DNA of 64,000 nt, taken from an uncultured Bacteroidota bacterium. Its GTDB lineage: Bacteria > Bacteroidota > Bacteroidia > Bacteroidales > WCHB1-69. Positions 4,740 to 57,969 of the stretch are shown here, one piece after another (position 1 is the first letter of the stretch; the number at the start of each line of letters is the position of its first letter). The notes below the pieces were generated by a model that worked only from the letters and a program-made list of their open reading frames with translations, had not been told where the DNA came from and did not search any database. The translations under genes and the position numbers were made by a program. The stretch is taken from the NCBI GenBank assembly GCA_942493315.1, contig OW818690.1, forward strand, positions 2,759,275-2,823,274, in the 5' to 3' direction.

Positions 4740-4766
4740 ATTTTTTTATTGATTAATTAATTATTG

Positions 4767-5945: not shown

Positions 5946-5950
5946 GTATA

Positions 5951-9174: not shown

Positions 9175-9354
9175 GGGCATTCCGGCACCATCCGACACAC
9201 GAGCATACCCTGGTGCCGTCGGGCTTGTTCCGGGGTCCGCTTCGCTCCCGTACTTCGCTGCACTTCACTTAGGATCATTAGTTTCATCTCGCTAACTCAT
9301 CACGGCGTTCGTTCCAGCTCGTACCACCTCCGGTGCCCTCCACATCCCTAATGC
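9175..9354 (+). repeat. GC-rich structured element, copy D (most divergent)
   Basis: Starts GGGCATTCC and ends CCCTAATGC like the other copies. Internal stem CGGCACCA...TGGTGCCG. GC-rich in an AT-rich context. Track ORF 9104-9295 lies inside it and is judged spurious. Confidence 0.75.
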
Positions 9355-9410
9355 AATGAAAATCTGCCCCAAATTTATCCGCTGGGGGGTAATATTTCAT
9401 ATTCTAATAT

Positions 9411-9504
9411 ATGCAGGGTACGGTATAAATGTAAAAATAACATTTTTTATAACATCCATTCATTCAATTATTTACACAATTTTTCACCCTGCTTTTATAA
9501 GAAT
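9411..9504 (+). repeat. AT-rich hairpin module, copy M5
   Basis: ATTCTAATATATGCAGGGT ... ACCCTGCTTTTATAAGAAT terminal inverted repeat enclosing an AT-rich loop of about 56 nt. Lies 3' of GC-rich copy D, as in copies A/M3 and C/M7. Confidence 0.7.
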
Positions 9505-9516
9505 ATAATAGCACAA

Positions 9517-9562
9517 TCGAGCATTCGAGCATTCCGAGCATTCGAGCAACCGAGCATTCGAA
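9517..9562. repeat. Short tandem repeat (GAGCATTC-type units)
   Basis: cgagcattcgagcattccgagcattcgagcaaccgagcattcg, read directly. Confidence 0.8.
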
Positions 9563-12601: not shown

Positions 12602-12602
12602 A

Positions 12603-12730
12603 GACTACGGACTACGGACTACGGACTACAGACTACGGACTACAGACTACGGACTACAGACTACGGACTACAGACTACAGACTACGGACTACAGACTACA
12701 GACTACGGACTACAGACTACGGACTACAGA
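12603..12730. repeat. Heptamer tandem array GACTACG/GACTACA (~18 units)
   Basis: Read directly. Starts 2 nt after the stop codon of the EEP gene. Confidence 0.95.
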
Positions 12731-12744
12731 CATTTATCTTTAAT

Positions 12745-12938
12745 CACCTGTCCCCTGTCCCCTGTCACCTGTTACCTGTTACCTGTTACCTGTTACCTGT
12801 CACCTGTTACCTGTTACCTGTTACCTGTTACCTGTCACCTGTCCCCTGTCACCTGTTACCTGTTACCTGTCCCCTGTCACCTGTCCCCTGTCACCTGTTA
12901 CCTGTTACCTGTCCCCTGTTACCTGTCACCTGTCCCCT
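12745..12938. repeat. Heptamer tandem array CCTGTCA/CCTGTTA/CCTGTCC (~27 units)
   Basis: Read directly. Ends 2 nt before the stop codon (12941-12943) of the minus-strand 1404-aa gene. Confidence 0.95.
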
Positions 12939-15900: not shown

Positions 15901-17155
15901 TGAGAAAGTCATAATAAGTCATATTAAAGACTCCATCATTTCCATCTAAATAAACGGGTACAAAAAGGATTTTTATATTGGACTTTGGATCATTATGTAA
16001 CCCGTTATTCAAAATATGATTGATCACAGGATCATGATTAGGATCAGAAAGCAGATGAGTAGCAAAGTCGTTTAAAACAGGAGTTTGAATCGGTTGCGCC
16101 ATTTTCTCCAAAAGATCGTGCCTTGCTCCCATATTTCCGGCAGGAACAGCTATAACGGCAACAATTTGTTTGGTCAGATTTTGTTTTCTGAGTTGAGCTA
16201 AAGATTCAATAAAGAGATCGATCCCCTTATTTTTAAACTCATATCTTCCGCTATTGATTACCAGAAGAGCCTCATGATCAATAGGTTGTTGTAATAGCGT
16301 TTCAGCAACTTTTATTATTTGTTTTCTTGCTTTGGCTCTTTTTTCCAGAAAAATAGCCTCTTCAGGAACTATTTTATTTTCAAAACCATTGATGGTCACA
16401 ACATCCACTGATTTTTTAAAGAACGATTCACATTCCACATTCGTAATTTCGCTTACAGTAGTAAATGAATCAGCATGTACAGCAGACAACATTTCCAATG
16501 AAAATTTGGATTGAATACCAAAATTAGTTGCTAATTCCTGTGGATTATATTCTTTAATTTTATTATAAAGTGGCAAACCGTTCCCTGCAATAGATCTTCC
16601 CAAAGCTGTTGCATGAGTAGTAAAAACTGTAGCAATTTGAGGCACATTTTCCTTTAAATGTAGAATACCGGTACCGGTCATCCATTCATGAAAATGGGCT
16701 ACAATATGGTCATTAGAATGGCAATAATAGTTATAAAAACTTTCAATCACTCTACCGGCAGTATATCCAAAAAGGGCAGGCTCAACATAATCCCACTGAC
16801 CTGAAATAGAATCTAACTTATACGAAAGCCAGAATTGAGTAAAAATTTCATCTTTTTTGGCAAAGAATGGGGTAAAATCAACTAAAAACACGATTGGAGA
16901 GCCTTTGATCTGCCATCTTCCGATTCTTACTTTTAATCCTTCCGTTTCCGCAATATCTTTCCATTTTTTGTATAAGGTAAAATCTTCCACAAATTCTACA
17001 TTCTGTTCCTTAGGTAAATCAGGTCCTATACAAATATATTTTTCAGGAAAATGTTCGGTTGCAGTAACCGCTTTCGTAGATAAAACGGTATAAATTCCGC
17101 CCACTTTATTACACACTTCCCAACTGGTTTCGAATACATAATCAGCTCTCTTCAT
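12941..17155 (-). CDS. Fusion protein: GT3-type glycogen synthase (N-terminal) plus alpha-glucan phosphorylase GT35 (C-terminal)
   Basis: The N-terminus YVFETSWEVCNKVGGIYTVLSTKA is the GT3 glycogen synthase signature. After about residue 570 come NLWWSWSPEARELF (DUF3417-type start of alpha-glucan phosphorylases) and EASGTSGEKAIMNGVLNFSVLDGWW (PLP-lysine region). Single uninterrupted 1404-codon ORF. Confidence 0.85.
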   Translation of the reverse strand: MKRADYVFETSWEVCNKVGGIYTVLSTKAVTATEHFPEKYICIGPDLPKEQNVEFVEDFTLYKKWKDIAETEGLKVRIGRWQIKGSPIVFLVDFTPFFAKKDEIFTQFWLSYKLDSISGQWDYVEPALFGYTAGRVIESFYNYYCHSNDHIVAHFHEWMTGTGILHLKENVPQIATVFTTHATALGRSIAGNGLPLYNKIKEYNPQELATNFGIQSKFSLEMLSAVHADSFTTVSEITNVECESFFKKSVDVVTINGFENKIVPEEAIFLEKRAKARKQIIKVAETLLQQPIDHEALLVINSGRYEFKNKGIDLFIESLAQLRKQNLTKQIVAVIAVPAGNMGARHDLLEKMAQPIQTPVLNDFATHLLSDPNHDPVINHILNNGLHNDPKSNIKILFVPVYLDGNDGVFNMTYYDFLMGFDLSVFPSYYEPWGYTPLESIAFGIPTITTTLAGFGTWVLSHFGKQNSAIVIERDDYNDQRVVEQLASSIGYFCSLSAEEKLAINQKATEISNQALWSHLYNHYLEAYHIALEKSDLRFDLFKHKVSRISFITEKLPQNEPNWVHISVKSNLTADLNKLEEIAHNLWWSWSPEARELFVEIAGKELWYQYHENPTHVLQMLSFERIQSYASNVDYLKKLNRVYQDFQNYLNAPRTRMEQKVAYFSMEFGISNELKIFSGGLGMLAGDYLKEASDSNVNMIGIGLLYRYGYFTQQISHSGDQISLYPPQSFSKLPISPVKEENGDWKFISIPMPGRTLYARIWKVDVGRIPLYLLDTDFECNNQQDRQITHTLYGGDIENRLKQEILLGIGGVKMLQLLDEKPVIYHMNEGHAAFLAIERLSEEVKTNHHTLQAAIEMVRASTLFTTHTPVPAGHDAFSEDLMRTYFVNYIAYLNITWETFMGFGRKDRDNQFEKFSMSILALKLSQEMNGVSKIHGRVSREMFVNQYNGFFANELHIGYVTNGVHYPTWTHPKWQKFHAEQFQSHYIDYQTYPEKWNGIYSGKEETIWTIKQELRTEMLNHVKEQLEIQMRKRNESPSLIVKTLKSINNETLTIGFARRFATYKRAHLLFTNEERLKTIVNNPQRPIQFLFAGKAHPHDKAGQDLIKKIIEFSRKPEFIGKIIFLENYDMILAKKLISGCDVWLNNPTRPLEASGTSGEKAIMNGVLNFSVLDGWWAEGYKPGAGWAMEEEITYKDNFFQDELDAAVLYSVIEDQIATTFYNRTSSGIPSDWVTMMKENFAQIAPHFTMKRQLEDYYSQYYHKLEARTQILSENNFEKLHQLIYWKDKILSNWDDLELVNIKFDNEREKVFQVGECAHLEVKVKLGNLKPDDLKMELVIVNSSENTNQLFTKYPISYLKTEKGISYFLLDLNASFSGSWKTAIRVIPSHPILPHDMDFNLVKWL

Positions 17156-17198
17156 TGAACAACAATTTTTTAGTAAAAAGATTGCAAAGATACGAAAT

Positions 17199-17288
17199 AA
17201 TGTGCTAATGTGCTAATGTGCTAATGTGCTAATGTGTTAATGTGCTAATGTGCTAATGTGCTAATGTGACAATGTGATAATGTAATAA
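17199..17288. repeat. Octamer tandem array AATGTGCT (~11 units)
   Basis: Read directly. Lies 44-133 nt upstream of the start of the glycogen fusion gene (minus strand). Shares the ATTAGCA core with the array upstream of gyrA. Confidence 0.9.
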
Positions 17289-17375
17289 TTTGCTAATTTT
17301 CTCAATGTGCTCTTTAGCTTGCTAATGTAAAAATTAATAAGAGGATACATTATATTGTATTTCTTTATGTAAATT

Positions 17376-18005
17376 TTAAAAATTAACACCAACTTTAAAA
17401 ATTCCTTGTGCTCCATATCCAATCTCCATATTCAAAATCTTTGATTTCGCAAAATTTAATCCAAGGAGGCATATTTGTATGTCTGGAAAAATGTAATTTG
17501 TACCTTCAGTAAATGAAAAACGATCACTTATACTCAATTCATTAGTATAGTTTATCCCAATTCCAATTGAGGAATAAACGGAAAAATTACTTTTATTTAT
17601 ATATGTAAACTTGTTTGAAATGAAAAGAGAATATACATGAATGTTGACCCCGTATTCAGTTGATAAAAGATCTTCTATTTTTTTCAAAGAGTAAACACCA
17701 CATACACCTAAACTATATTTAGAGTTAAAATTATAGAAATACCTAATATTAAAGGAGAATGGAATTGAATAGGAATCATTTTCTGGTTTATTAACAAAAC
17801 CAAAAAAGAAACCTGAAAAATAAAAATCTTCAAAAACTAAATTATATGGATTTAGTGGAATTGGAAAGACTCCCACTGAAACATTAAACTCATGTTTCTT
17901 CATTTTTAGTAGTTGTGATGATTGGTTTTCCTGTGCGAAAGCAGAAATTATCGTACAAAATAGCAAGACAATCAAAATTATTTTTTTTAAATGATACGAT
18001 TTCAT
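17376..18005 (-). CDS. Outer-membrane beta-barrel protein (small porin-like), function unknown
   Basis: Signal peptide MKSYHLKKIILIVLLFCTIISAFAQ at internal ATG 18005. Alternating aromatic/hydrophobic beta-strand pattern and C-terminal ...GVNF. The longer track ORF (to 18131) lacks a signal peptide at its start. Confidence 0.55.
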   Translation of the reverse strand: MKSYHLKKIILIVLLFCTIISAFAQENQSSQLLKMKKHEFNVSVGVFPIPLNPYNLVFEDFYFSGFFFGFVNKPENDSYSIPFSFNIRYFYNFNSKYSLGVCGVYSLKKIEDLLSTEYGVNIHVYSLFISNKFTYINKSNFSVYSSIGIGINYTNELSISDRFSFTEGTNYIFPDIQICLLGLNFAKSKILNMEIGYGAQGIFKVGVNF

Positions 18006-23014: not shown

Positions 23015-23591
23015 AAAGAGAATCAACATTGCCATTTTGGAAAATGCTTCCATTGTAAGTGAAGGGATTCAAAGTTTGCTTCAAAAATCACATTTGTATA
23101 TCAAACCGATATGGATCAAAGATATTGACAATTTGAATTTTCATATAGAACGTTTAAAAATTGACATGATTATCATCAATCCAAACTTGGTAATCAATAG
23201 GTTCAAGTTTTTTACACAATTAAAAAACAACAATCCTCAGGTTAAATGGTTAGGGTTAACTTACAATCTGATTGAAAGGGAGATACAGCCTTTGTTTGAT
23301 GATGTTATTCAAATCGATGATGCTTATGAAAATATCACACGTAAGATCGATTATTTCATTGAAAATACGCAAAATGAGGAGACCACTGTATTAACAGATC
23401 GGGAGCAAAATGTATTAAAAGAGATTATCAAGGGATTATCAAATAAAGAGATAGCAGTTCGGTTGAATATCAGTATCCATACTGTAATGAGTCATCGTAA
23501 AAATATATACCAGAAAACCGATATCAAAAGTCAGGCCGGATTAACGGTTTATGCACTGACACACAATATTGTTTCGATAGAATCTCTATAG
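23007..23591 (+). CDS. LuxR-family transcription regulator with an atypical receiver-like N-terminal domain
   Basis: C-terminal LuxR HTH (LTDREQNVLKEIIKGLSNKEIAVRLNISIHTVMSHRKNIYQK). The ATG overlaps the upstream stop (ATGGATAA). The N-terminal domain lacks the usual DD pocket and phospho-Asp (ILEN, IIINPN). Confidence 0.75.
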   Translation: MDKKRINIAILENASIVSEGIQSLLQKSHLYIKPIWIKDIDNLNFHIERLKIDMIIINPNLVINRFKFFTQLKNNNPQVKWLGLTYNLIEREIQPLFDDVIQIDDAYENITRKIDYFIENTQNEETTVLTDREQNVLKEIIKGLSNKEIAVRLNISIHTVMSHRKNIYQKTDIKSQAGLTVYALTHNIVSIESL

Positions 23592-23622
23592 GGCTAAGGG
23601 CGAAGGGCGAAGGGCGAAGGGG
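23591..23622. repeat. Heptamer tandem repeat AGGGCGA/AGGGCTA
   Basis: gggctaagggcgaagggcgaagggcgaaggggg, starting right after the LuxR-family gene stop. Confidence 0.85.
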
Positions 23623-28327: not shown

Positions 28328-28338
28328 TCGAAATGCAA

Positions 28339-28460
28339 TCAGCTTTCAGCTATCAGTTTTCAGCTATCAGTTTTCAGCTTTCAGTTTTCTAATGGTCAAC
28401 CAAATTCAGGCATTGACACATTATTCATTATTCATTATTCATTATTCATTATTCATTAAT
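28339..28460. repeat. Two heptamer arrays: CAGCTTT/CAGCTAT/CAGTTTT (28339-28389) and TTATTCA (28420-28460)
   Basis: Read directly. The CAGCTAT/CAGTTTT units recur at 54609-54635, and the reverse complement of TTATTCA recurs at 29070-29100. Confidence 0.9.
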
Positions 28461-28492
28461 TTATTATCTTTGCAATCTAAAAATTAGAAATT

Positions 28493-28909
28493 ATGGAAAA
28501 TTATTGTACATTTTGTGAGTTATTTGACGGTATTAATTGGTGGATCTATTTGGCATCAGTTGTGACTGTGTTTATTATTGGGGCTATCTGGTTTTCATTT
28601 TTGTTTTCTAAAATGTGGATGGAAGTGAATAAATTGGATAAAGATGCCAAAATCAGCACCGGAAATATGGTTTTTACCATGTTATTTCAATTGACAACCA
28701 CCGCATTGTTGGGATTGGCCATATTTGTGTTAGTTTCAGAAACATCATGGGAATTGACTTTATTTGTAATTATTGGAGTTGTTGGCTGGATGAAGTCCAA
28801 CCTTAAATTCAAATTCAATGATTTTAAAACCTTTTTCAAAGCAGCGATTTCAGAAGTGGGCTATTTTGCCATTTCCGCGATTGTGTTTATGTTGTTTGCA
28901 TTGATATAG
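28493..28909 (+). CDS. DUF1761-like small membrane protein
   Basis: 138 aa, 4 TM segments. The N-terminal INWWIYLASVVTVFIIGAIWFSFLF resembles DUF1761 family starts. Own TATCTTTG box at 28465-28472. Confidence 0.5.
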   Translation: MENYCTFCELFDGINWWIYLASVVTVFIIGAIWFSFLFSKMWMEVNKLDKDAKISTGNMVFTMLFQLTTTALLGLAIFVLVSETSWELTLFVIIGVVGWMKSNLKFKFNDFKTFFKAAISEVGYFAISAIVFMLFALI

Positions 28910-28931
28910 TGACCTAATAGGGCAAAATCCA

Positions 28932-29012
28932 CCAACCTTTTATTAGATTAGCTATTCAGAGCTCAGTCGGCCCAATAGTCACGCATTTCCATTGTATTAG
29001 GGCGAAGGTCAG
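28932..29012 (-). repeat. Truncated junction fragment of the composite repeat (end of the AT module plus end of the GC-rich element)
   Basis: caaccttttattagattagc...gagctcagtcgg...gtattagggcgaagg aligns with 38716-38786 (junction of M7 and GC copy C). Confidence 0.6.
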
Positions 29013-29018: not shown

Positions 29019-29102
29019 AGACTACGGACTACGGACTACGGACTACGGACTACGGACAACGGACGAAAAATGAATAATGAAAAATGAATAATGGGAAATG
29101 AG
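29019..29102. repeat. Heptamer arrays GACTACG (x6, ending GGACAAC) followed by TGAATAA/TGAAAAA units
   Basis: Read directly. Same GACTACG unit as at 12603-12730. Confidence 0.9.
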
Positions 29103-33711: not shown

Positions 33712-35085
33712 ATGATTATAAATAGTATCATCAGGTTTTTTCATACAGATAATGAACTAACCATCAATAAATTAGGCAAATTTACTAAAAAACATATTGC
33801 ATCGCAATTGGAAGGTGGTCAAATTTTTCCACCTAAGGTTATTTTAGAGTTTGAATATAATGAAGATATCAATGGGTTTTCGTTTGTTGATAAAATATCT
33901 CAATGGGAGTCACTTCGGTTATTAGATGCTGATGATCAAGTTACTAAATGGGTAAAAGAATTAAAAAACGCCATTCAAAATAACAAAAGTGTTAGTTTTG
34001 AGAATTTTGGAACATTCTATATGAATCCAACCGGGGTTATTTGTTTTGATTCTGATATCATCAAGGAATTGAACAGTGAATATTACGGTATGGCACCGGT
34101 TCCGTTGAATAAGACGGGAGACGGGAGACAGGAGACGGGAGACGGGGGAATTCAGATTACGGACAACGGACTACAGACTATGGACGAGGGTATTCAGACT
34201 GCGGACAACGGACTACAGACTACGGACGAGGGTATTCAGACTGCGGACAACGGACTACAGACTACGGACGGGGGACTGGAGACTGGAGACGAGGGAGTAC
34301 AGACTGCGGACAACGGACTACAGACTACGGACGAGAGACTGGAGACGGGAGACGGGAGACAGGAGATTGGAGACGGGAGACAGGAGACGGGAGACGGGAG
34401 ACAGGAGACGGGAGACGGGAGACGTGAGATTGAGGACGACGGACTACAGACTACGGAAGAGGTTGAGGAAGAAGAAAAAGAAGAGGTTTTTATGCCGGTT
34501 AAAAAGAGAAAAAATAGATGGTTGGAGAGGCTCATTTTTATTTTGATTATTTTGGGATCAATCGGATTGGTTGCTTATCTTTTTAGATCTGATATAAAAA
34601 AATTCTATGATCAAAAATTTAATAAAAATAATCAGGTGGAAACCCCTACCCCTCAAGCTGTTGCGGTTGATACAAATATGGATGAATATATTGACTATGA
34701 AGCAGATTCTTTAGAAAATTCAAACTCTGCTACTAATACTTCAGAAGAGATTACTAATCCAACAGTTTCTAAAGTTGAGACAACAAAAAATTCAAATAAT
34801 TCCAATACAACAACAAAACCTGTTCAAATTGAAACAAATCAAAATGGAAGTAAAGATATTTCCTCCATTTCATTTGAAAAAGGGAAATTTTATGTTATTG
34901 CAGGTAGCTTTGGTAAAAAAAGTGATGCGATACAACATATCAAAGACAAAAAGTTAACACAATACAATCCTGTTCTTCTGGTTGGAGATTCAAGAGTCAG
35001 AGTTTGTATTGGAACCTATAAAACAGAAGCTGAAGCAACTGCTTTTGCTAAAAAAATTGATCAATCCTTTTGGGTATTAAAATAG
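33712..35085 (+). CDS. HU-like N-terminal domain / TM / SPOR-domain protein with an internal repeat-encoded low-complexity region
   Basis: C-terminal SPOR-like domain (GKFYVIAGSFGKKSDAIQHI...VRVCIGTYKTEAEATAFAKKI). Central TM segment (LIFILIILGSIGLVAYL). The Gly/Asp/Thr/Gln-rich region is encoded by heptamer repeats. Confidence 0.7.
   Translation: MIINSIIRFFHTDNELTINKLGKFTKKHIASQLEGGQIFPPKVILEFEYNEDINGFSFVDKISQWESLRLLDADDQVTKWVKELKNAIQNNKSVSFENFGTFYMNPTGVICFDSDIIKELNSEYYGMAPVPLNKTGDGRQETGDGGIQITDNGLQTMDEGIQTADNGLQTTDEGIQTADNGLQTTDGGLETGDEGVQTADNGLQTTDERLETGDGRQEIGDGRQETGDGRQETGDGRREIEDDGLQTTEEVEEEEKEEVFMPVKKRKNRWLERLIFILIILGSIGLVAYLFRSDIKKFYDQKFNKNNQVETPTPQAVAVDTNMDEYIDYEADSLENSNSATNTSEEITNPTVSKVETTKNSNNSNTTTKPVQIETNQNGSKDISSISFEKGKFYVIAGSFGKKSDAIQHIKDKKLTQYNPVLLVGDSRVRVCIGTYKTEAEATAFAKKIDQSFWVLK
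34113..34456 (+). repeat. Heptamer tandem repeats (GGAGACG, GGACTAC, AGACTAC and others) embedded in frame within a CDS
   Basis: Read directly. The units match the intergenic arrays at 12603 and 29019. The translation shows 7-aa periodic strings (GDGRQET, DNGLQTT). Confidence 0.9.
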
Positions 35086-37162: not shown

Positions 37163-37200
37163 TTAGAGGGGGTTTGGATTTTGATTTGGGGGATCTTTAT

Positions 37201-38758
37201 CCGACGGAGCACTCATTGGGTAATCTAATAAATGATGGGTAAAAAATTTAGTAAATTGTTTATTCATTGAAAGATATGAAATCTACTGATTTTGCATCCT
37301 TGTTTCACCAACCTTTTAATAGATTACCTAAATGAAAACCCAAATTTGAAATCTATCACCCATTTGACAACTCCAAAATCAAACCAAATTCTAAATTTAG
37401 CTCCTCTAAAATTAATCCAAATCTTCCTAAAATCAATCAGACTTTAGCTACAAACAAACCAATATTACCATTTTTAAATTAAATGGTTTTTTAATAACTT
37501 ATAAGATTATTTATTGTTTATACAAACATTTTGCAATGTTTGTAGTTTTCTTTCCCATTGTTGATTGAGATCGATTTTTCAATCATAGCAGATGAGGGAT
37601 CTAATCTGAATTTGATCTGTTCAAAGATCATATACCAATACAGATAGTTTTGCAGATAACTGGAGGATACTCCATGAAACCGATCCATAAATGCAATTAA
37701 CTTCAGGTATCTGCTTTCAATCGTTTTTGTATCATAATATTGGTTACATCCTTTCACTTTCTGATCCTTTTTTCTAATAAAGTAGCTGATCTTTCTCTTT
37801 CCTGCAAATTGTTTAAGAATCGGATGATCACTCAAACATAGTTTTTTTACTTTGTTTAGTTTTTTTCCAAGATGGTTCTTTAATTCTTCTTCTTGTAATG
37901 CACCTTGTTGAATAATTGTGATTTCAAAATGGGATATTCTGTCACCAATAGCCACTAAAGAAAGAGGTTTGTATTCCCCATTTCGGATACTTTCTGCTTT
38001 TCTATTACAGGCAGGATTCGTTATCTTTCCTTTTTGTCCTATTTGTTTAGCTTTGGCTCCTTGACCCTTTCGGGAGAAAGGTTCTGAAATATCAATCATT
38101 TCCGTTATTCCTCGATATTTATCCGGGACATATTCACCCAGAGAGGATATAATTTTATGTCTCCAATCAAATGAAGTTTGGTTAGAGATATCCAATGCAT
38201 CAGAACAATCTTTGATTCCTGTTCCTGATAACATCAACAAGAAGTAGGATTGTAGTTTCTCCTTCTTTTTGATGTAGGAAATTGTAGTACCTGAGAACTC
38301 ATTAAAGCTTCTGCCACAACTCTTACAAAGGAAATATTGAACTCCTTTTTTCTTACCGTTTAGAATAAAATGTGATTTTCCACATTTAGGACAAACTCTG
38401 ACTTGCTTCTCACTGATATACTTACATATAGAAGCCAAAGGATTAACAAAACTCTTTTTTTGGGGGGTAACTTCAGCAGATGGTGAGGGTTGAACTGAAG
38501 TAGGGTCAATGGTTTGCTTAGAGGATTGGGGTAGATCATTCATAGTATTTTGAGTTTAGTGAGTACTTGATATTGATGCAAATATAAACAAAAAAATGAA
38601 CGAATTGCAACAAAAATAAAAAAAAATCTGCTAATCTAATAAAAGATTGGTGCTATTGTGATGCAAAATCACAAGACTATAAAAAAGTGTTTAAAATCAA
38701 AAATATACCGAAAAACTCACCCATCTTTTAATAGATTAGCCAATTAAAGCTCCGTCGG
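37201..38758 (-). mobile_element. IS-like unit: IS1595-like transposase gene bracketed by inverted AT-hairpin modules of about 130 bp (M6 37201-37328, M7 38630-38758)
   Basis: The outermost 10 bp are perfectly inverted (CCGACGGAGC ... GCTCCGTCGG), followed by an extended imperfect inverted repeat through ATTGG-TAATCTA-TAAA-GATGGGT. No target-site duplication was recognised. Confidence 0.55.
37518..38543 (-). CDS. IS1595-family-like DDE transposase with an N-terminal zinc ribbon
   Basis: CPKCG...x18...CKSCG zinc ribbon. C-terminal HGVSSSYLQNYLYWYMIFE resembles the IS1595 (ISXO2-like) conserved end. A TATATTTG -7 box lies on the minus strand at 38579-38586. Confidence 0.6.
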   Translation of the reverse strand: MNDLPQSSKQTIDPTSVQPSPSAEVTPQKKSFVNPLASICKYISEKQVRVCPKCGKSHFILNGKKKGVQYFLCKSCGRSFNEFSGTTISYIKKKEKLQSYFLLMLSGTGIKDCSDALDISNQTSFDWRHKIISSLGEYVPDKYRGITEMIDISEPFSRKGQGAKAKQIGQKGKITNPACNRKAESIRNGEYKPLSLVAIGDRISHFEITIIQQGALQEEELKNHLGKKLNKVKKLCLSDHPILKQFAGKRKISYFIRKKDQKVKGCNQYYDTKTIESRYLKLIAFMDRFHGVSSSYLQNYLYWYMIFEQIKFRLDPSSAMIEKSISINNGKENYKHCKMFV

Positions 38759-38771
38759 ACAGTAAACCCCC

Positions 38772-38981
38772 GCATTAGGGCGAAGGCCAGGTACCCCGCA
38801 AGTTGAGCTGCTTAGGGCCTGACGGATCGGGCAGAGCGACGAAGGAGCTACTGCCCGGCCGATCAGACCCTTGCAGCGAAACGAGGAGTACAGGCCGGAG
38901 ACCGACCCTTTGGCCAGCGACGCGACTATTATTCATATTGGTCTGGATTTTTATTGAGCGCAGCCAAAGGGGAATGCCCTA
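38772..38981 (-). repeat. GC-rich structured element, copy C (reverse orientation)
   Basis: The reverse complement aligns along its length with copy A (47564-47770). It has the same CCTTTGGC...GCCAAAGG stem and a compensated CGGGCAG...CTGCCCG hairpin. Confidence 0.85.
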
Positions 38982-40818: not shown

Positions 40819-40857
40819 ATTCTTTTTTTAGAGTATGCAAAAATACATTTTTTTTTG

Positions 40858-40865
40858 TAATTTTG
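40858..40865 (+). promoter_or_regulatory. -7 promoter box TAATTTTG driving the riboswitch leader
   Basis: TAnnTTTG located 3 nt before the proposed P1 stem of the riboswitch. Confidence 0.45.
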
Positions 40866-40868
40866 CCA

Positions 40869-41050
40869 TGATTTTCAACAAGGGAATCGGGTGAAATTCC
40901 TGAACAGTTCCCGCTGCTGTAAGTCTCATTAAGTTCTTAGGATTTAGCCACTGTTTTTATTCCAAAAATGGGAAGGCCCTCAAGAGAGACAAGTCAGAAA
41001 ACCTATTGTAAATCAAGCATTAAGGCTTCGGGAAAAAGCTGAAACGAACC
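40869..41050 (+). promoter_or_regulatory. Cobalamin (B12) riboswitch
   Basis: AAGGGAATCGGGTGAAATTCCTGAACAGTTCCCGCTGCTGTAAG matches the conserved GGGAA..GGTGAAA.TCC...CCCGC.GCTGTAA core. Also GCCACTG...GGGAAGGC, a B12-box-like AAGTCAGAAAACCT, and a P1 candidate TGATTT (40869-40874) / AAATCA (41010-41015). Confidence 0.75.
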
Positions 41051-41119
41051 GTTTGTTCCAACTCTTTCCGATTCCAAATTTATTCATCTAACCAATCCAT
41101 TTTGGTTACTAAAAACGAA

Positions 41120-42196
41120 ATGATGAAACGGGAAAATTTTATCAAAAGATTACAAAAATTGATCTTTTTATGTTTTGGAATTGTACTTTTAGCAGTTTCT
41201 TGTGAACCACCTATTGATCCTCCCATTAATCAGGGAGAAAGTGGTATTTATATCCTTAATGAAGGGGGTTTTAATATGAATAACAGCTCTTTAAGTTTCT
41301 TTAATTTTAAAGATCACTCAGTAATTGAAAATATTTTTCTGCAATCTAATAACCGCGGATTAGGGGATGTGGCAAACGATATGAAACAATATGGTAATAA
41401 AATCTACATTGTTGTGAATAATTCCGAAATTATTGAAATTATAAATCTCAAAACTGCTAAATCAATAAAGCAAATCTCACTTACAGGAAAACAACCTAGA
41501 AATATAACTTTTTTTGAAAATAAAGCTTATGTTAGTTGTTTTGATGGTACAGTTGTAAGAATTGACACAACAACTCTTCTAATAGATGGAACCATAACCG
41601 TTGGTTCAAACCCTGAAGGGATCTGTGTCGCCAATAATAAACTATATGTGGCTAATTCAGGAGGATTAAGTTCACCCATCACTTCCAATACAGTTTCTGT
41701 TGTTGATTTGAATAGCTATACAGAATTGAAAAGAATACCGGTTGCAATTGGCCCCAGGATACTTAAAACTGATCAATATGGAGATATTTATGTGTCATGT
41801 ACTGGAAACTATGGGAATATTCCTGCGTCATTTCATCGAATCAATACAATTACAGATGAAACTGTTGAAAATTTTAATTTAGAAGTTCATAATTTTACTA
41901 TCCAGGGAAATTTTGCTTATTTATATTCCTATGATTTTACTGATCAATCTAAATGGTTTAAAGTAATGGATATTTCTACTGAAAACATTGTAAAAGATAA
42001 TTTCATTTCTGATGGTACGCAAATTACTATTCCTTATGGGATAGCAATTGATCCGGTAACCAATTATATTTATATCACTGATGCAGGTGATTATGTGTCA
42101 ACCGGTGATGTATTTTGTTTTAATCAGAACGGAGTTCTTCAGTATCAATTCGAAGCTGGTATTATACCTAATGGAAGTATGGTTTTTAAAAGATAA
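41120..42196 (+). CDS. Surface lipoprotein with a YncE-like beta-propeller (DUF5074-like)
   Basis: Lipobox LLAVSC. Repeated blades of about 40 aa (G..P..I......YV.N.....V..ID). ATG 41120 is preferred to TTG 41102. Confidence 0.6.
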   Translation: MMKRENFIKRLQKLIFLCFGIVLLAVSCEPPIDPPINQGESGIYILNEGGFNMNNSSLSFFNFKDHSVIENIFLQSNNRGLGDVANDMKQYGNKIYIVVNNSEIIEIINLKTAKSIKQISLTGKQPRNITFFENKAYVSCFDGTVVRIDTTTLLIDGTITVGSNPEGICVANNKLYVANSGGLSSPITSNTVSVVDLNSYTELKRIPVAIGPRILKTDQYGDIYVSCTGNYGNIPASFHRINTITDETVENFNLEVHNFTIQGNFAYLYSYDFTDQSKWFKVMDISTENIVKDNFISDGTQITIPYGIAIDPVTNYIYITDAGDYVSTGDVFCFNQNGVLQYQFEAGIIPNGSMVFKR

Positions 42197-43435: not shown

Positions 43436-43563
43436 TAAAACTCTAAGAACTGAATAATAACGTATGAAAATTTAAGAAATTGTATGCAATATTATTTTTT
43501 TAAATTCAATAAAATTATTGAATTTTGGGATTTATAAATATCAAAATTATTATTTAAATTAAT

Positions 43564-43700
43564 CGACAGAGCTATTTACCCCTATTCTAATAAATGATGG
43601 ATGAAAATTTTGTATCTATTTTATATTCAAACACATACAAAATTTCATTTTTTCTATCGAAACAGTATCAACCTTTTATTAGAATATAAAATATTGACGC
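43564..43700 (+). repeat. AT-rich hairpin module, copy M1
   Basis: CGACAGAGC...ATTCTAATAAATGATGG...CAACCTTTTATTAGAATATAAAATATTGACGCA. Near-identical to M2. Confidence 0.85.
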
Positions 43701-46001: not shown

Positions 46002-46006
46002 ATACG

Positions 46007-46144
46007 CGACGAAGCACTACACCCCTATTCCAATAAATGATGGGTAAAAATATTGTATCTATTTTATATTCAAACACATACAAAATTTAATTTTTTCAAT
46101 CGAAACAGTATCAACCTTTTATTAGAATATAAAATATTAACGCA
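46007..46144 (+). repeat. AT-rich hairpin module, copy M2
   Basis: Direct repeat of M1 beginning 6 nt after the helicase stop. Confidence 0.85.
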
Positions 46145-47563: not shown

Positions 47564-47770
47564 GGGCATTCCCCTTTGGCTGCGCTCAACCAAACCCCCA
47601 CCCCAACGAACAGAAACACCGTCGCTTGCCAAAGGGTCGGTCTCCGGCCTGTACTCCTCGCAGTTCCGCCAAGTGTTGCATCGGCCCGGCAGGAGCTCCT
47701 CCGTCGCTCTGCCGGTCTCGGCACCACTAAGCGTCCCTGCTTGCGGGGTACCTGGCCTCCGCCCTAATGC
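47564..47770 (+). repeat. GC-rich structured element, copy A
   Basis: GGGCATTCC...CCGCCCTAATGC. Stems CCTTTGGC/GCCAAAGG and CCGGCAG/CTGCCGG. Track ORF 47576-47767 lies entirely within it and is judged spurious. Confidence 0.85.
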
Positions 47771-47815
47771 AATTTCAGTAAGTGGTTAATATTTCAATTC
47801 GCCCCAAAACTTTAT

Positions 47816-47927
47816 ATTCTATTTAATGATGGGTAAAAATATTGTATCTATTTTATATTCAAATACATACAAAATATCATTTTTTCAATCGAAACACTAA
47901 CAACCTTTTATTGGAATATGAAATATT
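47816..47927 (+). repeat. AT-rich hairpin module, copy M3
   Basis: ATTCTATTTAATGATGGGTAAAAATATTGTATC...CAACCTTTTATTGGAAT. Lies 45 nt 3' of GC-rich copy A. Confidence 0.8.
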
Positions 47928-50242: not shown

Positions 50243-50355
50243 ATGTTATTTAACTGTATATAACTGTAAATGTGTTCAAATTTTCACTATTATTTGTCAT
50301 ATTTTATTAGAACATTATCACATTAATTAAGGTATTCCGTTTTGCCGCCCCACAT

Positions 50356-50458
50356 ATTCTAATAAATGACGGGAGAAAATAATTTTATTTATATCATTTA
50401 CAAATACTTACAAAATTTCATTTTTTCAATCAAAACAACAACCTGCTTTTATAAGAAT
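50356..50458 (+). repeat. AT-rich hairpin module, copy M4 (preceded by a remnant of about 20 bp resembling the fused ends of the GC-rich element)
   Basis: ATTCTAATAAATGACGGGAG...CAACCTGCTTTTATAAGAAT. Upstream GGTATTCCGTTTTGCCGCCCCA (50332-50352) resembles the GGGCATTCC and CCGCCC ends. Confidence 0.7.
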
Positions 50459-50596
50459 ATCTAAAACCTGTGGATTTGTATCGAAGGGGTAAGAGTTTTG
50501 CTAATATTCAAATTTTCAATTGTTATTTCAATACGTTTATATATATTTGTGCCAAAAATCAATGTACCAGAATAAGTAAAATAAACTCCTAATTTC

Positions 50597-54209: not shown

Positions 54210-54280
54210 TTGTTGTATCAATTTATGGATGCAAATATACCAAATAATTTATGAATATATTAAAAGTAAATATTTTTTTA

Positions 54281-54341
54281 GGTTTTGGGTTTTGGGTTAT
54301 GAGTTTTGGGTCTTGGGTTTTGGGTCTTGGGTTTTGGGTTA
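54281..54341. repeat. Heptamer array GGTTTTG/GGTCTTG (~9 units)
   Basis: Read directly. Its reverse complement (CCCAAGACCCAAAACCC) occurs at 57952-57969 on the other side of the island. Confidence 0.9.
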
Positions 54342-54387: not shown

Positions 54388-54567
54388 GGGCATTCCGGCA
54401 CCATCCCACCCACTTTCCTACCCTGCTGCCGTCGGTCTCCGGCCTGTACTCCTCGCAGTACCGCCAAGTGTTGCATCGGCCCGGCAGTAGCTCCCAAGGT
54501 CGCTCTGCCGGTCTCGTGCACCACTAGGCGTCCCTGCTTGCGGGGTACCTGACCTCCGCCCTAATGC
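54388..54567 (+). repeat. GC-rich structured element, copy B
   Basis: GGGCATTCCGGCA...TGCCGTCGGTCTCCGGCCTGTACTCCTCGCAG...CCGGCAG-TAGCTCCCAAGGTCGCT-CTGCCGG...CCGCCCTAATGC. Confidence 0.85.
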
Positions 54568-54571
54568 TTCT

Positions 54572-54692
54572 CGGGCTCAGGGCTCAGGGCGAAAGGCCAA
54601 GGGCTATCAGCTATCAGTTTTCAGCTATCAGTTTTGCATTTTGCTTATTTAGTGGCTGTTGTCTGTGGTCTGTAGTCCGTAGACCGTTGTCC
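54572..54692. repeat. Mixed short tandem repeats (GGGCTCA, CAGCTAT/CAGTTTT, and the complement of GACTACR)
   Basis: Read directly. Track ORF 54564-54824 is a translation of repeats and is judged spurious. Confidence 0.8.
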
Positions 54693-54700: not shown

Positions 54701-54930
54701 GGAACGTTATATTTGTAGCAAATCAACCTCCGACAACTCCAACCCGCTCCGTAGGAGCGTTATATTTGTAGCCAATCAACCTCCGACAAAACCACTTCGC
54801 TCCAGCGGAGCGTTATATTTGTAGCCAAACAAATACCCGACAAAACCACTTCGCTCCAGCGGAGCGTTATATTTGTAGGCAAACGATTACCCGACAAAAC
54901 GATCCCGCTCCAGCGGAGCGTTATATTTGT
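54701..54930 (-). repeat. REP-like 53-54 bp hairpin units, ~4 copies, inverted relative to the downstream array
   Basis: Four CGCTCC-N3/4-GGAGCG hairpins, each followed by TTATATTTGTAG. The reverse complement matches the CAAATATAACGCTCCGCTGGAGCG units at 57170-57600. Confidence 0.9.
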
Positions 54931-54972
54931 TTTTTTTATTTCAAAAATTATGAATAATTAAAATAATTTCAC

Positions 54973-54980
54973 TATTTTTG
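54973..54980 (+). promoter_or_regulatory. -7 promoter box TATTTTTG upstream of the Y1 transposase gene
   Basis: TAnnTTTG, 26 nt before ATG 55006. Confidence 0.45.
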
Positions 54981-55005
54981 CTTCACTCTCTTAAAACTAA
55001 TTATT

Positions 55006-55476
55006 ATGGCTAACACTTACTCTCAATGCTATTTTCACCTTGTTTTTTCTCCTAACATTTCAAAATCATTAATTGATACATCTTGGAGCAATAATCTAGA
55101 AATTTTCATTACATCAATTGTTCAGGAAAATGTACATAAAATGATTGCCATTAAATGTATGCCTGATCATGTTCATATCTTTTTTGGATATAATTTGAAT
55201 CAAAAAATACCTGATTTGGTTAATGTCATTAAAATGACTTCTTCAAAATGGTTGAAAGAACAAAATTTTTGTAAAAACTCATTTAATTGGCAAAATGGGT
55301 ATGGTGCTTTTACTCATGTAAAATCTTCTGTTAATGATGTTTATAATTACATTATGAATCAAGAAAATCACCATAAAAAAATAAGTTTTAAAGAAGAATT
55401 TTTATCATTTTTAAAAAGAAATGAAATTGATTATCACGATGATTATTTATTCCATTTTTTAGACCCTAAGTTTTAA
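55006..55476 (+). CDS. IS200/IS605-type Y1 (HUH) transposase, REP-associated (RAYT-like)
   Basis: HUH motif in MPDHVHIFF. WQNGYGAFT. C-terminal catalytic Tyr helix SSVNDVYNYIMNQENHH (Y-I-x-N-Q). 156 aa. No tnpB partner. Flanked by inverted hairpin repeats. Confidence 0.85.
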   Translation: MANTYSQCYFHLVFSPNISKSLIDTSWSNNLEIFITSIVQENVHKMIAIKCMPDHVHIFFGYNLNQKIPDLVNVIKMTSSKWLKEQNFCKNSFNWQNGYGAFTHVKSSVNDVYNYIMNQENHHKKISFKEEFLSFLKRNEIDYHDDYLFHFLDPKF

Positions 55477-55485
55477 TTCCAAAAA

Positions 55486-57635
55486 CCAATTTAACGCTCC
55501 GATGGAGCGGGTTCGTTTTGTCCGTTATTTGTTTGCTACCAATTTAACGCTCCGATGGAGCGGGTTCGTTTTGTCCGTTATTTGTTTGCTACCAATTTAA
55601 CGCTCCGCTGGAGCGGGTTCGTGTCGCCGGTTATTCGTTTGCTACCAATATAACGCTCCGCTGGAGCGGGTTCGTGTCGTCCGTTATTTGTTTGCTACCA
55701 ATATAACGCTCCGATGGAGCGGGTTCGTTTTGTCCGTTATTCGTTCGCTACAAATATAACGCTCCGCTGGAGCGGGTTCGTGTCGACCGTTATTCGTTCG
55801 CTACCAATTTAACGCTCCGCTGGAGCGGGTTCGTTTTGTCCGTTATTTGTTTGCTACCAATTTAACGCTCCGATGGAGCGGGTTCGTTTCGCCTGTTATT
55901 TGTTTGCTACCAATTTAACGCTCCGCTGGAGCGGGTTCGTTTTGTCCGTTATTTGTTTGCTACCAATTTAACGCTCCGTTGGAGCGGGTTCGTGTCGCCG
56001 GTTATTCGTTTGCTACCAATATAACGCTCCGCTGGAGCGGGTTCGTGTCGCCGGTTATTCGTTCGCTACCAATTTAACGCTCCGCTGGAGCGGGTTCGTT
56101 TCGCCGGTTATTCGTTCGCTACCAATTTAACGCTCCGCTGGAGCGGGTTCGTTTTGTCCGTTATTTGTTTGCTACCAATTTAACGCTCCGTTGGAGCGGG
56201 TTCGTGTCGCCGGTTATTCGTTCGCTACCAATATAACGCTCCGCTGGAGCGGGTTCGTTTTGTCCGTTATTCGTTCGCTACAAATTTAACGCTCCGATGG
56301 AGCGGGTTCGTTTTGTCCGTTATTTGTTTGCTACCAATTTAACGCTCCGCTGGAGCGGGTTCGTGTCGCCGGTTATTCGTTTGCTACCAATTTAACGCTC
56401 CGATGGAGCGGGTTCGTTTTGTCCGTTATTTGTTTGCTACCAATTTAACGCTCCGATGGAGCGGGTTCGTTTCGCCTGTTATTTGTTTGCTACCAATTTA
56501 ACGCTCCGCTGGAGCGGGTTCGTTTCGCCGGTTATTCGTTCGCTACCAATTTAACGCTCCGCTGGAGCGGGTTCGTTTCGCCGGTTATTCGTTCGCTACC
56601 AATTTAACGCTCCGCTGGAGCGGGTTCGTTTTGTCCGTTATTTGTTTGCTACCAATTTAACGCTCCGATGGAGCGGGTTCGTTTTGTCCGTTATTTGTTT
56701 GCTACCAATTTAACGCTCCGATGGAGCGGGTTCGTGTCGCCGGTTATTCGTTTGCTACCAATTTAACGCTCAGATGGAGCGGGTTCGTGTCGCCGGTTAT
56801 TCGTTCGCTACCAATTTAACGCTCAGATGGAGCGGGTTCGTTTCGCCGGTTATTCGTTTGCTACCAATATAACGCTCCGCTGGAGCGGGTTCGTGTCGTC
56901 CGTTATTTGTTTGCTACCAATTTAACGCTCCGCTGGAGCGGGTTCGTGTCGTCCGTTATTTGTTTGCTACCAATTTAACGCTCAGATGGAGCGGGTTCGT
57001 TTTGTCCGTTATTCGTTCGTTACCAATATAACGCTCAGATGGAGCGGGTTCGTTTTGTTCGTTATTCGTTCGCTACCAATTTAACGCTCCGCTGGAGCGG
57101 GTTCGTTTTGTCCGTTATTCGTTCGCTACCAATTTAACGCTCCGCTGGAGCGGGTTCGTTTTGTCCGTTATTCGTTCGCTACAAATATAACGCTCCGCTG
57201 GAGCGGGTTCGTTTCGCAGGTTATTCGTTTGCTACCAATATAACGCTCCGCTGGAGCGGGTTCGTGTCGTCCGTTATTCGTTTGCTACAAATATAACGCT
57301 CCGCTGGAGCGAGTATGTTTTGTCCGTTATTCGTTTGCTACAAATATAACGCTCCGCTGGAGCGAGTATGTTTTGTCCGTTATTCGTTTGCTACAAATAT
57401 AACGCTCCGCTTGAGCGGGTTCGTGTCGTCCGTTATTCGTTTGCTACAAATATAACGCTCCGCTGGAGCGAGTATGTTTTGTCCGTTATTCGTTTGCTAC
57501 AAATATAACGCTCCGCTGGAGCGAGTATGTTTTGTCCGTTATTCGTTTGCTACAAATATAACGCTCCGCTGGAGCGAGTATGTTTTGTCCGTTATTCGTT
57601 TGCTACAAATATAACGCTCCGATATAGAGGGTTAC
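55486..57635 (+). repeat. Tandem array of ~40 REP-like 53-bp hairpin units
   Basis: The period is exactly 53 bp by counting (ACCAATTTAACGCTCCGCTGGAGCGGGTTCGTTTTGTCCGTTATTTGTTTGCT). Each unit has a CGCTCC-N4-GGAGCG hairpin. There are several unit subtypes. The last 7 or so units include five copies of a distinct GAGCGAGTATG variant, interrupted by one GGGTTCGTG-type unit. Confidence 0.97.
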
Positions 57636-57711
57636 ATCGAACTTCTAATATCTAACTTCTCCAGTCACCAGTCTCTCGTCCCTTGTCCTAAACAAAACCG
57701 CAGGTTTTGTT

Positions 57712-57874
57712 GCGTTAGGACGGAGCCGAGAAAGCCCGCAAAGGAGGAAGCCGATGTGATGCAGGGAGGAAAAGAGCGAACTTGTGAGCTCCTTTTACGA
57801 CCATGCAGTCACACGGCTTACGACTGCGGACTTGAAGGCGGAGACCGACGGCGAGCCTGCGAGCCGGAACGCCC
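57712..57874 (-). repeat. GC-rich structured element, copy F (reverse orientation, divergent)
   Basis: The reverse complement begins GGGCGTTCCGGC and ends CCGTCCTAACGC, and shares GTCGGTCTCCG and the AGCTC...TTCGCT loop. Track ORF 57756-57938 lies on it and is judged spurious. Confidence 0.75.
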
Positions 57875-57880: not shown

Positions 57881-57969
57881 GACTAAAGACAAAGGACGAA
57901 GGACAAAAGTCAAATTAAAAATGAAAAATGAAAAATGAAAAATGAGAAAAACCCAAGACCCAAAACCCA
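57881..57969. repeat. Short tandem repeats (AAGGACR units, AAAAATG x4, CCCAAGA/CCCAAAA)
   Basis: Read directly. Confidence 0.85.

Follow-up and report, generated by a model that had tools for sequence, protein, structure and literature searches.

GC-rich intergenic elements with a covarying fold beside a Y1 transposase locus of Bacteroidales: a probable REPIN/BIME-like repeat family

Introduction

A repetitive extragenic palindromic (REP) sequence is a simple palindrome with a GTAG or GTGG tetranucleotide beside it, and two inverted REPs make up a REPIN. Together with the Y1 transposases known as RAYTs (REP-associated tyrosine transposases, TnpA_REP), these repeats form one of the described systems (Nunvar 2010; Bertels & Rainey 2011, PMC3116915; Ton-Hoang 2012) that come closest to the family of GC-rich intergenic elements reported here. 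The family, referred to below as GC elements, is represented by five copies in a stretch of 64,000 nucleotides (nt; the window) from an uncultured Bacteroidota bacterium of the order Bacteroidales (assembly GCA_942493315.1, contig OW818690.1, positions 2,759,275 to 2,823,274), and two of the five lie on either side of a gene for a Y1 HUH tyrosine transposase. On balance, the GC elements are probably non-autonomous, strand-specifically folding intergenic repeats of Bacteroidales that resemble REPINs and the bacterial interspersed mosaic elements (BIMEs), that is, structured MITEs (miniature inverted-repeat transposable elements), rather than conventional noncoding RNA (ncRNA) genes.

Like REPs and REPINs, the GC elements are short intergenic repeats that are GC-richer than their surroundings, fold into hairpins on one strand, carry compensated stems and in some genomes number in the tens or above. 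Both kinds of repeat are accompanied by a low-copy HUH Y1 gene with inverted flanking repeats, lack terminal inverted repeats (TIRs) and target-site duplications (TSDs), and persist vertically while some copies decay. The differences concern the architecture. Instead of a REP doublet, the GC element is a multi-helix structure of 160-210 nt with conserved loops; it has no conserved GTAG, since AGTAGC and AGGAGC alternate in the loop of its helix P7; the units that directly bracket the Y1 gene are a separate 53-nt repeat composed of a hairpin and GTAG; and the Y1 protein is of IS200 type, with the signature of subclass 1.2, and not a canonical RAYT. The general kind, structured intergenic repeats tied to a Y1 transposase, is known, but the architecture is not the classical one. 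New are the large size and multi-helix build of the element, its covarying terminal stem and its position beside hairpin+GTAG units, of which it is not built, as well as an association with subclass 1.2 Y1 genes, which are reported to have no repeats.

Ordered intergenic mosaics of short modules, with REP-like hairpins among them, are also found in the BIMEs of Enterobacteria. The mosaics described here run from heptamers through the structured element and the small hairpin to the REP-like units; the module sequences and the host phylum differ from those of BIMEs, which contain no large GC-rich structured module. Other intergenic repeats of 100-200 bp, such as Correia/NEMIS, ERIC, RUP/BOX and RPE, are co-transcribed and can fold as RNA. 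Unlike the GC element, they possess TIRs and usually the target duplications of DDE transposition. A classical DDE MITE has a TIR of at least 10 bp and a TSD, whereas the ends of the GC element share 5 bp, GCRTT/AAYGC.

Copies of the GC element

The window has a GC content of about 33%, and the elements stand out in it as five islands of 163-208 nt with 56-66% GC. An initial annotation, made from the sequence alone, had described GC-rich elements in AT-rich surroundings with shared ends, and this description holds: each copy starts with GGGCRTTCC and closes with CCTAAYGC, and the opening motif occurs five times in the window, once per element start, against 0.42 occurrences expected (none of 100 shuffles reaches five). 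All five copies were recovered at the positions it gave, except that copy C ends at 38979, since 38981 takes in two flanking bases. Copies A (47564-47770, plus strand, 207 nt), B (54388-54567, plus strand, 180 nt), C (38772-38979, minus strand, 208 nt) and F (57712-57874, minus strand, 163 nt) are homologous over their full length in a MAFFT alignment and score 116, 125, 133 and 167 bits, respectively, with the covariance model described below. Copy F belongs to a compact subtype with GCGTT/AACGC ends. Copy B lies to the left of the Y1 locus with its 3′ end toward the gene, copy F lies to the right of it and is inverted relative to copy B, and the 3′ end of copy C abuts the end of an IS1595-like element.

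The fifth copy, D (9175-9354, plus strand, 180 nt), is divergent. The MAFFT alignment joins it to the others only over its first ~45 nt and last ~9 nt: it keeps the 5′ module (GGGCATTCC-P2-GTCGG) and the 3′ terminus (CCCTAATGC), while its core is unrelated, folds no better than shuffles (z = +1.05) and leaves it with a score of 12 bits only. Relatives of copy D occur in the loci L011 and L008. Of two shorter pieces, the end fragment at 28994-29012 (minus strand, CTGACCTTCGCCCTAAT) is a true 3′ end and is followed by the same linker and AT-rich inverted-repeat module as copy C. The other, at 50332-50352 (plus strand, GGTATTCCGTTTTGCCGCCCC), had been read as a remnant with fused ends. It precedes an inverted-repeat module and may be a strongly deleted remnant (GGTATTCCG..GCCGCCCC), yet the resemblance is faint and the reading unproven.

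When species-representative genomes were scanned for exact matches to a degenerate 3′ motif, 44 loci were retrieved from about 8 metagenome-assembled genomes (MAGs) of Bacteroidales/Bacteroidota and from one contig that is labelled Planctomycetales and is syntenic with the window. The number of pattern loci per MAG ranges from 1 (JAVEZW) to 23 (JBLJBB); the window itself holds 5 copies in 64 kb. End patterns gave 38 distinct full elements for the analysis of flanks and boundaries. A covariance model built from 22 compact copies, all taken from other genomes, found 53 copies in the sequence gathered, and when run over the whole window with filters off it returned exactly the five known copies and no others. 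Four of these have E-values of 1e-19 to 1e-35, and copy D (E 0.28) is detected via its 5′ module alone. The 3′ pattern had no match in the viral contigs of IMG/VR, so there is no sign of phage carriage. Rfam 15 at gathering thresholds reports only a cobalamin riboswitch in the whole window, and at E<=10 only noise for copies A, F and D; nothing in Rfam identifies the element as a fragment of a known intron, insertion sequence (IS) end or ribosomal RNA, an outcome that the initial annotation had named as one that would overturn its reading. A literature search with the 5′ motif gave unrelated matches, and no paper describing the family was found. The GC-element family, absent from Rfam and from the literature searched, is previously uncatalogued.

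Secondary structure and covariation

The GC element consists of a 5′ module, a long arm and a 3′ tail. The 5′ part of the consensus is GGGCRTTCC followed by P2, a hairpin of varying length (stems of 4-9 bp, loops of 3 to ~50 nt) with hypervariable loops that are G-poor and CA-rich when long. In copy A, P2 is long (CCTTTGGC...GCCAAAGG) and has a CA-rich loop of ~45 nt. After P2 comes a conserved single-stranded stretch (GTCGGTCTCCG) and then the arm, in which five helices, P3-P7, alternate with conserved internal and apical loops; its features include a conserved UU bulge, an invariant U.G pair and the apical AG(G/U)AGCUYC...GUCGCUCU. The 3′ tail reads CUCCGYCCUAAYGC, and the last five bases of the 3′ terminus (CYCCGYCCTAAYGC) pair with bases 3-7 of the element to form the terminal stem P1′. 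Both stems of the initial annotation are correct: they correspond to P2, with GTCGG after it, and to P7.

The pairing is tightly maintained while the sequences change. In a MAFFT alignment of the 22 compact copies, which is not fitted to any structure, 95.6% of the cells are paired, compared with 35-50% after a shift of the 3′ partners by 1-3 columns, and 23 of the 45 pairs show double compensatory changes. Over the 53 model-aligned copies, pairing reaches 95.1% (39-51% when slid) with double changes in 26 of 43 pairs, and several pairs occur as three or four pair types across the copies. Selection on a folded nucleic acid had been proposed from the window copies, and pairing near 95% against 35-51% in the slid controls, with double changes in more than half of the pairs, strongly supports selection acting on a folded single strand. 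By the measure applied to structured RNAs, the element has a secondary structure backed by covariation. In a single copy, copy A, RNA folding is more stable than expected on the sense strand (z = -2.68) and less so on the antisense strand (z = -1.8), and copy F folded with DNA energy parameters (z = -3.2) adopts the family architecture, including the terminal stem.

The terminal stem itself covaries. The change from GCATT to GCGTT that is matched by AATGC to AACGC, pointed out earlier for copy F, recurs among the 53 copies, where position 5 of the GCRTT/AAYGC stem is A-T in 37, G-C in 6 and A.C in 1; a metagenomic copy (L078) shows a second compensated position, position 7, as GCGTG...CACGC. 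GCRTT/AAYGC is preferred as the terminal stem because it is universal and covaries at two positions. The terminal helix GGGC/GCCC drawn by RNAalifold was rejected, for it never covaries and is absent from mini-elements and from copy D. G.U-type pairs outnumber A.C-type pairs by 75 to 16, mainly due to the invariant U.G, and this excess indicates that one defined strand is the folded one.

In some elements, perfect GTAG...CTAC palindromes (e.g., GTAGAGACGCCATGCATGGCGTCTCTAC) are inserted in the apical loop of P7 or replace P2 (L002 4497-4701, L005 4277-4512, L019 2655-2839, L013 7609-7792, L033 5785-5964). These are canonical GTAG-tagged REP-like sequences nested within the larger GC element.

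A conserved fold of this kind also suits a structured ncRNA family, either trans-acting small RNA paralogues or cis-acting elements of untranslated regions, in which the spread to many copies would be secondary; such RNAs might, for example, act as protein sponges, stabilise transcripts, serve as a Rho/terminator module or use the CA-rich P2 loop as an antisense seed. Strong covariation, loops conserved across diverged subfamilies and the invariant U.G pair with the excess of G.U on one strand speak for it, as do the hypervariable, G-poor and CA-rich P2 loops and the GC-rich island in an AT-rich genome, which is typical of structural RNAs. Furthermore, a terminator-like hairpin immediately follows ~10 copies, and many copies lie 3-290 nt past the stop codon of a co-oriented upstream gene. 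We consider this reading unlikely, if far from negligible, in view of the repeat-like behavior of the family.

Repeat-like behavior of the family

All 53 copies are intergenic, and they show no orientation bias toward neighboring genes (downstream gene in the same orientation in 27 cases and opposite in 19, upstream gene 21 and 19). A cis-regulatory leader was dropped for that reason, and the lack of bias also speaks against ncRNA genes. No promoter-like motif occurs at a fixed distance in the flanks. The Bacteroidetes -7 box TAnnTTTG fits some flanks only, those of the five-T copies, and a start directed by it would fall inside the element and truncate its paired 5′ end, so this box was rejected as a promoter of the elements.

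Copy number differs widely between related MAGs, and within one MAG several copies can be 95-98% identical. The intergenic site orthologous to window positions 17155-17376, empty in the window, is filled in L031; a test for insertion polymorphism between strains had been suggested earlier, and presence does differ at this site. Decay is equally evident. Mini-elements of ~62 nt are internally deleted and keep only GGGCATTCC-P2-GTCGG and ...CTCC(R)GTC(W)AATGC (L043, L013), one copy is decayed (L046), and others are truncated at the 3′ or the 5′ end (L045, L048). At tail-to-tail junctions (L020 ~60-100, L031 5310-5330) a full element in inverted orientation has a 3′-end fragment or a 5′ module of another element fused directly to its 3′ end (GCCCTAATGCATTAGGGC), which hints that the 3′ boundary is recombinationally active. 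Truncated, decayed, deleted and tail-to-tail copies, the uneven copy number, presence or absence at an orthologous site, the lack of an Rfam match and the fixed position relative to the REP-like units of a transposase (below) all run counter to the ncRNA reading. The initial annotation had left the choice between an ncRNA family and a mobile element whose structure is recognised by a protein; the repeat-like behavior and the Y1 linkage favor the second.

The 38 full copies have no TIRs beyond the 5-bp GCRTT/AAYGC and no target duplication. T occupies positions -3, -2 and -1 before the element in 34, 33 and 29 of them, and (A/T)TTT precedes 27 of the 38. A T-rich 5′ target site had been anticipated, and a T-run indeed precedes most copies, but the AT-rich context weakens the inference that it is a target. 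None of the extracted elements encloses a gene that would make it an autonomous version; matches confined to the 5′ end represent mini-elements, copies of the D type, edges of loci or coincidences.

Some associations were set aside. An integron attC site has RYYYAAC ... GTTRRRY core sites that bound an imperfect palindrome of 55-140 nt and lies between co-oriented cassettes. The GC elements were rejected as attC sites, as only the G/C variant fortuitously has GTTAGG on the reverse strand, and the elements are longer, branched and placed in both orientations between housekeeping genes. Genes for DEAD-box (DbpA-type) and RecQ helicases recur within 1-2 kb of elements (L003, L004, L017, L025, L032, L041), and response-regulator and OmpA genes are further neighbors. 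They are housekeeping genes and were not retained as partners; the recurrence of the helicases probably reflects orthologous housekeeping neighborhoods, not a functional link. In L013, a two-gene cassette (AbiEii-type toxin and partner) is duplicated at 3857-5415 and 5743-7301, and identical 61-nt mini-elements at 5443 and 7329 follow one after each cassette copy. This suggests a segmental duplication or mobilisation of the cassette together with the mini-element.

The Y1 transposase and its 53-nt units

The Y1 HUH tyrosine transposase gene lies at 55006-55476 on the plus strand and encodes 156 aa (PF01797, E 7e-24). The protein scores 61.5 bits with the NCBIfam model NF033573 for IS200/IS605 (cutoff 55) and 26 bits with REP_Tyr_transpos (cutoff 80), which leaves it outside the RAYT (TnpA_REP) clade. 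Its motifs, DHVH as HUH, WQ and the Y motif YIMNQENHH, fit the signature Y---Q--HH of TnpA_Y1 subclass 1.2. Members of this subclass have ~150 aa with the motifs DH[VI]H, WQ and Y---Q--HH, occur in two phyla, Bacteroidetes and Cyanobacteria, and were described without associated REPs or IS-type terminal structures (Quentin et al. 2018, PMC6006769). The window protein matches this description in motifs, length and Bacteroidetes host. Unlike the published members (PMC6006769), however, the window gene and its homologues of 34-57% identity are bracketed by inverted arrays of hairpin+GTAG units.

In the window, the left array (54701-54930, plus strand) contains 4.3 REP-like units. Each is 53-54 nt long and consists of the hairpin CGCTCC-N3-GGAGCG with TTATATTTGTAGC after it. 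In the right array (55485-57621, minus strand), which has the opposite orientation, the same 53-nt unit is repeated ~40 times over 2.1 kb with 50% GC and an AT-skew of -0.4. A metagenome scan with the Y1 protein gave 80 loci. The same hairpin units flank every close relative of the gene, and homologues of 40-50% identity have different but analogous inverted arrays, made of a hairpin, 8-10 nt and GTAG; loci with a subclass 1.2 Y1 gene, down to ~40% identity, that is bracketed by arrays of ~50-nt units include L045-L050, L052, L053, L061, L066, L071 and L072. Since inverted hairpin+GTAG arrays accompany close and distant homologues alike, the 53-nt units are considered the cognate REP-like repeats of the enzyme.

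The putative promoter region of the Y1 gene (~54960-55000, TTTCACTATTTTTGCTTCAC) has a Bacteroidetes-type TAnnTTTG box and resembles the TTCACTA heptamers and T-run that precede many GC elements.

GC elements at the Y1 locus

Copies B (plus strand) and F (minus strand) flank the pair of arrays on the outside, and the 3′ ends of both copies face the Y1 gene. The gene is flanked by inverted copies of the GC element, as in REP/RAYT loci, although the 53-nt units intervene. The same position and orientation are found at close Y1 homologues (at least 81% aa identity), both in loci that were retrieved through the GC element (L038, L019) and in loci that were retrieved through the Y1 protein (L045, L078). 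Remnants persist beside two other close homologues, as a decayed copy in L046 and a 25-nt 3′ remnant in L048, and L018, in which the contig ends inside the array, is a probable further case. In total, at least 7 contigs besides the window show the arrangement. In L019, the element beside the Y1 gene is the sole pattern match in its MAG. The linkage extends to the REP-like units themselves: the REP-like motif GGAGCGTTATATTTGTAG is present within 700 nt downstream of 10 of the 53 elements, on the same strand in 9 of the 10, and upstream of none, and five of these ten loci have no Y1 gene (L023, L024, L029, L035, L037). GC elements are a regular module of the mosaic around the Y1 system and not its minimal hairpin unit.

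Several observations weigh against a handling of the GC elements by the Y1 enzyme. It is the 53-nt units, not the GC elements, that directly bracket the gene, and 43 of the 53 GC elements have no REP-like unit nearby. Between GC element and 53-nt unit there is no convincing homology, only short common words (GGAGC, GCTC, TAACGC); with no obvious shared hairpin or GTAG motif, the link between enzyme and substrate is circumstantial. No GC element occurs in the available flanks of the close Y1 loci L047, L049 (right side) and L050, and the distant Y1 loci (34-57% identity) have neither GC elements nor large analogous inverted elements. The copies that flank Y1 genes could stem from one ancestral arrangement and would then amount to few independent events. 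In the window, no orientation bias fits a targeting of one replication strand. Finally, loops conserved across subfamilies with diverged stems, and P2 loops that are CA-rich and G-poor, also suit a functional RNA.

Proposed mechanism

With these points taken into account, a REPIN/BIME-like repeat is still the reading we prefer, and the element is probably handled as single-stranded DNA (ssDNA) by the Y1 enzyme encoded at 55006-55476; on this reading, selection maintains the fold because recognition and processing act on it. The family, the selected fold, its strand asymmetry, the repeat-like behavior and the linkage to the Y1 locus with its REP-like units are shown, and the ssDNA nature of the folded species, the role of the window Y1 protein as the enzyme and the positions of the cuts are inferred. 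The strand exposed as ssDNA at the replication fork would fold, and the terminal stem P1′ would bring both ends of the element together. Cutting and rejoining at TTT|GGGC and AATGC| would then be the work of a Y1 HUH enzyme, most likely that of the window, and would copy or move the element to the 3′ side of a T-run. No target sequence would be duplicated, in keeping with IS200/IS605 and REP/RAYT systems. The compensatory changes and the conserved loops would be accounted for by selection for a fold that is competent for transposition.

The parallel with IS200/IS605 chemistry is suggestive. IS200/IS605 elements and the palindrome-associated transposable elements (PATEs) have a related Y1 transposase, no TIR or TSD and a subterminal hairpin, in the GC element P2. 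The left end of IS200/IS605 adjoins a short conserved flank, TTAC or TTGAT, a position taken in GC elements by TTT, and the pairing of GCRTT, just 5′ of P2, with the terminal AAYGC would be analogous to the guide pairing of IS608. The 62-nt mini-elements retain exactly the parts that enter into this parallel. Unlike in IS200/IS605, the transposase gene lies outside the element, the full elements on its two sides are inverted rather than direct, P2 is the one obvious subterminal hairpin, and the cleavage sites are putative. Compared with PATEs, the GC element agrees in having no TIR or TSD and in its apparent insertion 3′ of a fixed short sequence; it does not have distinct subterminal hairpins at both ends that match an autonomous IS with an internal tnpA.

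A further-reaching proposal is possible but tentative, and we hold it to be more doubtful than probable. In it, the 'orphan' TnpA_Y1 subclass 1.2, which occurs in Bacteroidota and Cyanobacteria, would find its missing cognate substrates in the DNA of the GC elements and the 53-nt units together. These repeats would constitute a new REPIN-like replicator with a large multi-helix ssDNA fold, whose ends would be recognised via the covarying terminal stem instead of a GTAG-tagged palindrome, and whose 3′ boundary would also be a landing site for IS1595-type elements (below).

If the link to Y1 is true, a Y1 subclass described without repeats acquires a function-relevant substrate, the idea of REPIN/RAYT as a 'domesticated replicator' extends to Bacteroidales, and HUH systems maintain large multi-helix elements by compensatory evolution, beyond simple palindromes. 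If the elements were expressed RNAs instead, they would make up a new, abundant and well-supported RNA class that is absent from Rfam. There are also practical consequences. MAG assemblies break at GC elements, and many contigs end within them; gene callers read the elements as open reading frames (ORFs), and comparative screens would flag them as 'novel structured RNA.' Recognising them as repeat modules prevents such mis-annotation.

Mosaic surroundings and the IS1595-like element

GC elements are embedded in mosaics of short modules. Nearly every copy has AT-rich arrays of heptamers, or in some cases of octamers, upstream; these belong to a small number of recurring types (TTCACTA, TTAGCAC, CTCTTAT) and end in TTT. 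Downstream of each copy, one of three arrangements follows. The first is a small hairpin, AACAAAACC-N3-GGTTTTGT, which in the window stands directly 3′ of copy F as the terminator-like AACAAAACC-TGC-GGTTTTGTT (57691-57711, minus strand) and is the module seen after ~10 copies in other genomes. The second consists of G-richer heptamers, in which AAGGGCG.. recurrently precedes CTATCAG..; in the window, heptamer tracts of CTCAGGG, AAGGGCG-like and CTATCAG units lie at 54568-54640 (plus strand), where they separate copy B from the REP-like array, and their order recurs in L035, L038 and L041. The third is a linker hairpin with an AT-rich inverted-repeat module of ~115 nt, which is the terminal repeat of an IS1595-like element. 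On this downstream side, the mosaic often also includes a 53-nt hairpin+GTAG unit or several of them.

The IS1595-like element of the window (37188-38771, minus strand) contains an ORF for a transposase-like protein of 341 aa (37518-38543) that scores above the cutoff for the IS1/IS1595 zinc domain and below it for the IS1595 catalytic model. Its ends are unusually long composite TIRs (~150 nt), made of the linker hairpin GGGGG..CCGACGGAGC and the ~115-nt AT-rich module, itself an inverted repeat. Solo linker and inverted-repeat modules are found at ~43555-43690, 46005-46135, 47775-47920, 50340-50460, 9355-9510 and 28900-28990, and no 8-bp duplication is visible. The notion that every AT-rich inverted-repeat module follows a GC element proved wrong, because two solo modules exist by themselves.

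The GC element could accordingly be an accessory part or preferred landing pad of this IS and its MITE, moved by the DDE transposase of the IS. The end of the IS or of a solo MITE (GGGG..CCGACGGAGC..) abuts ...AATGC exactly in at least six loci (window copy C, L001, L010, L017, L036 and L039), the IS1595-like ORF recurs in 7 loci that were retrieved solely through the GC element, and 4-5 of the 8 linker and inverted-repeat modules of the window follow the 3′ end of a GC element or a remnant of one. However, the IS has symmetric 150-nt ends of its own and occurs in either orientation, whereas the GC element is one-sided; most GC elements adjoin neither IS nor MITE, and the inverted-repeat module is also found alone. 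GC elements also lack the TIRs and 8-bp duplications expected of IS1595-type DDE transposition. The adjacency is better explained by a target preference of one element for the boundary of the other, and mobilisation by the IS1595-like transposase appears improbable.

The heptamers bear on one more explanation, in which the GC element is a retro-mobile RNA or a template for reverse transcriptase, similar to short interspersed nuclear elements (SINEs), retrons or defense-associated reverse transcriptases (DRTs), and the heptamer arrays arise from template slippage. The terminal stem joins the 5′ and 3′ ends in the manner of retron a1/a2, and short tandem heptamers flank nearly every copy. The heptamers, however, vary in sequence between copies and also occur far from elements, there is no poly-A and no target duplication, and no reverse transcriptase was seen in the recurrent-neighbor clusters examined or in the Pfam-scanned window ORFs. 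The retron analogy was rejected on these grounds, and an origin by reverse transcription is very improbable overall.

Tandem heptamer and octamer arrays with units such as AGACTAC, TCACCTG, TAATGTGC, TTTTGGG and TCAGCTT fill intergenic regions of the window (8601-8701, 9517-9561, 12602-12938, 17198-17311, 23590-23621, 28338-28467, 29020-29101, 54276-54340, 54607-54635, 57912-57949), and in different genomes a few unit types recur at fixed positions relative to the GC elements. Some Bacteroidetes and Cyanobacteria are known to carry heptamer repeats (PMC4679880); these phyla are also the two in which Y1 subclass 1.2 occurs.

Other features of the window

The cobalamin riboswitch reported by Rfam is located at 40841-41024 (plus strand, 84 bits), upstream of the gene for a DUF5074 protein (41102-42196). 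A further observation concerns an ORF at 33712-35085 (plus strand) that is predicted to code for a protein with HU-CCDC81 and SPOR domains. At 34112-34429 the ORF contains repeats of 7, 21, 42 and 63 nt that derive from heptamers (GACGGGA, GACTACG), and the heptamer vocabulary of the intergenic arrays appears to be translated there as a low-complexity linker.

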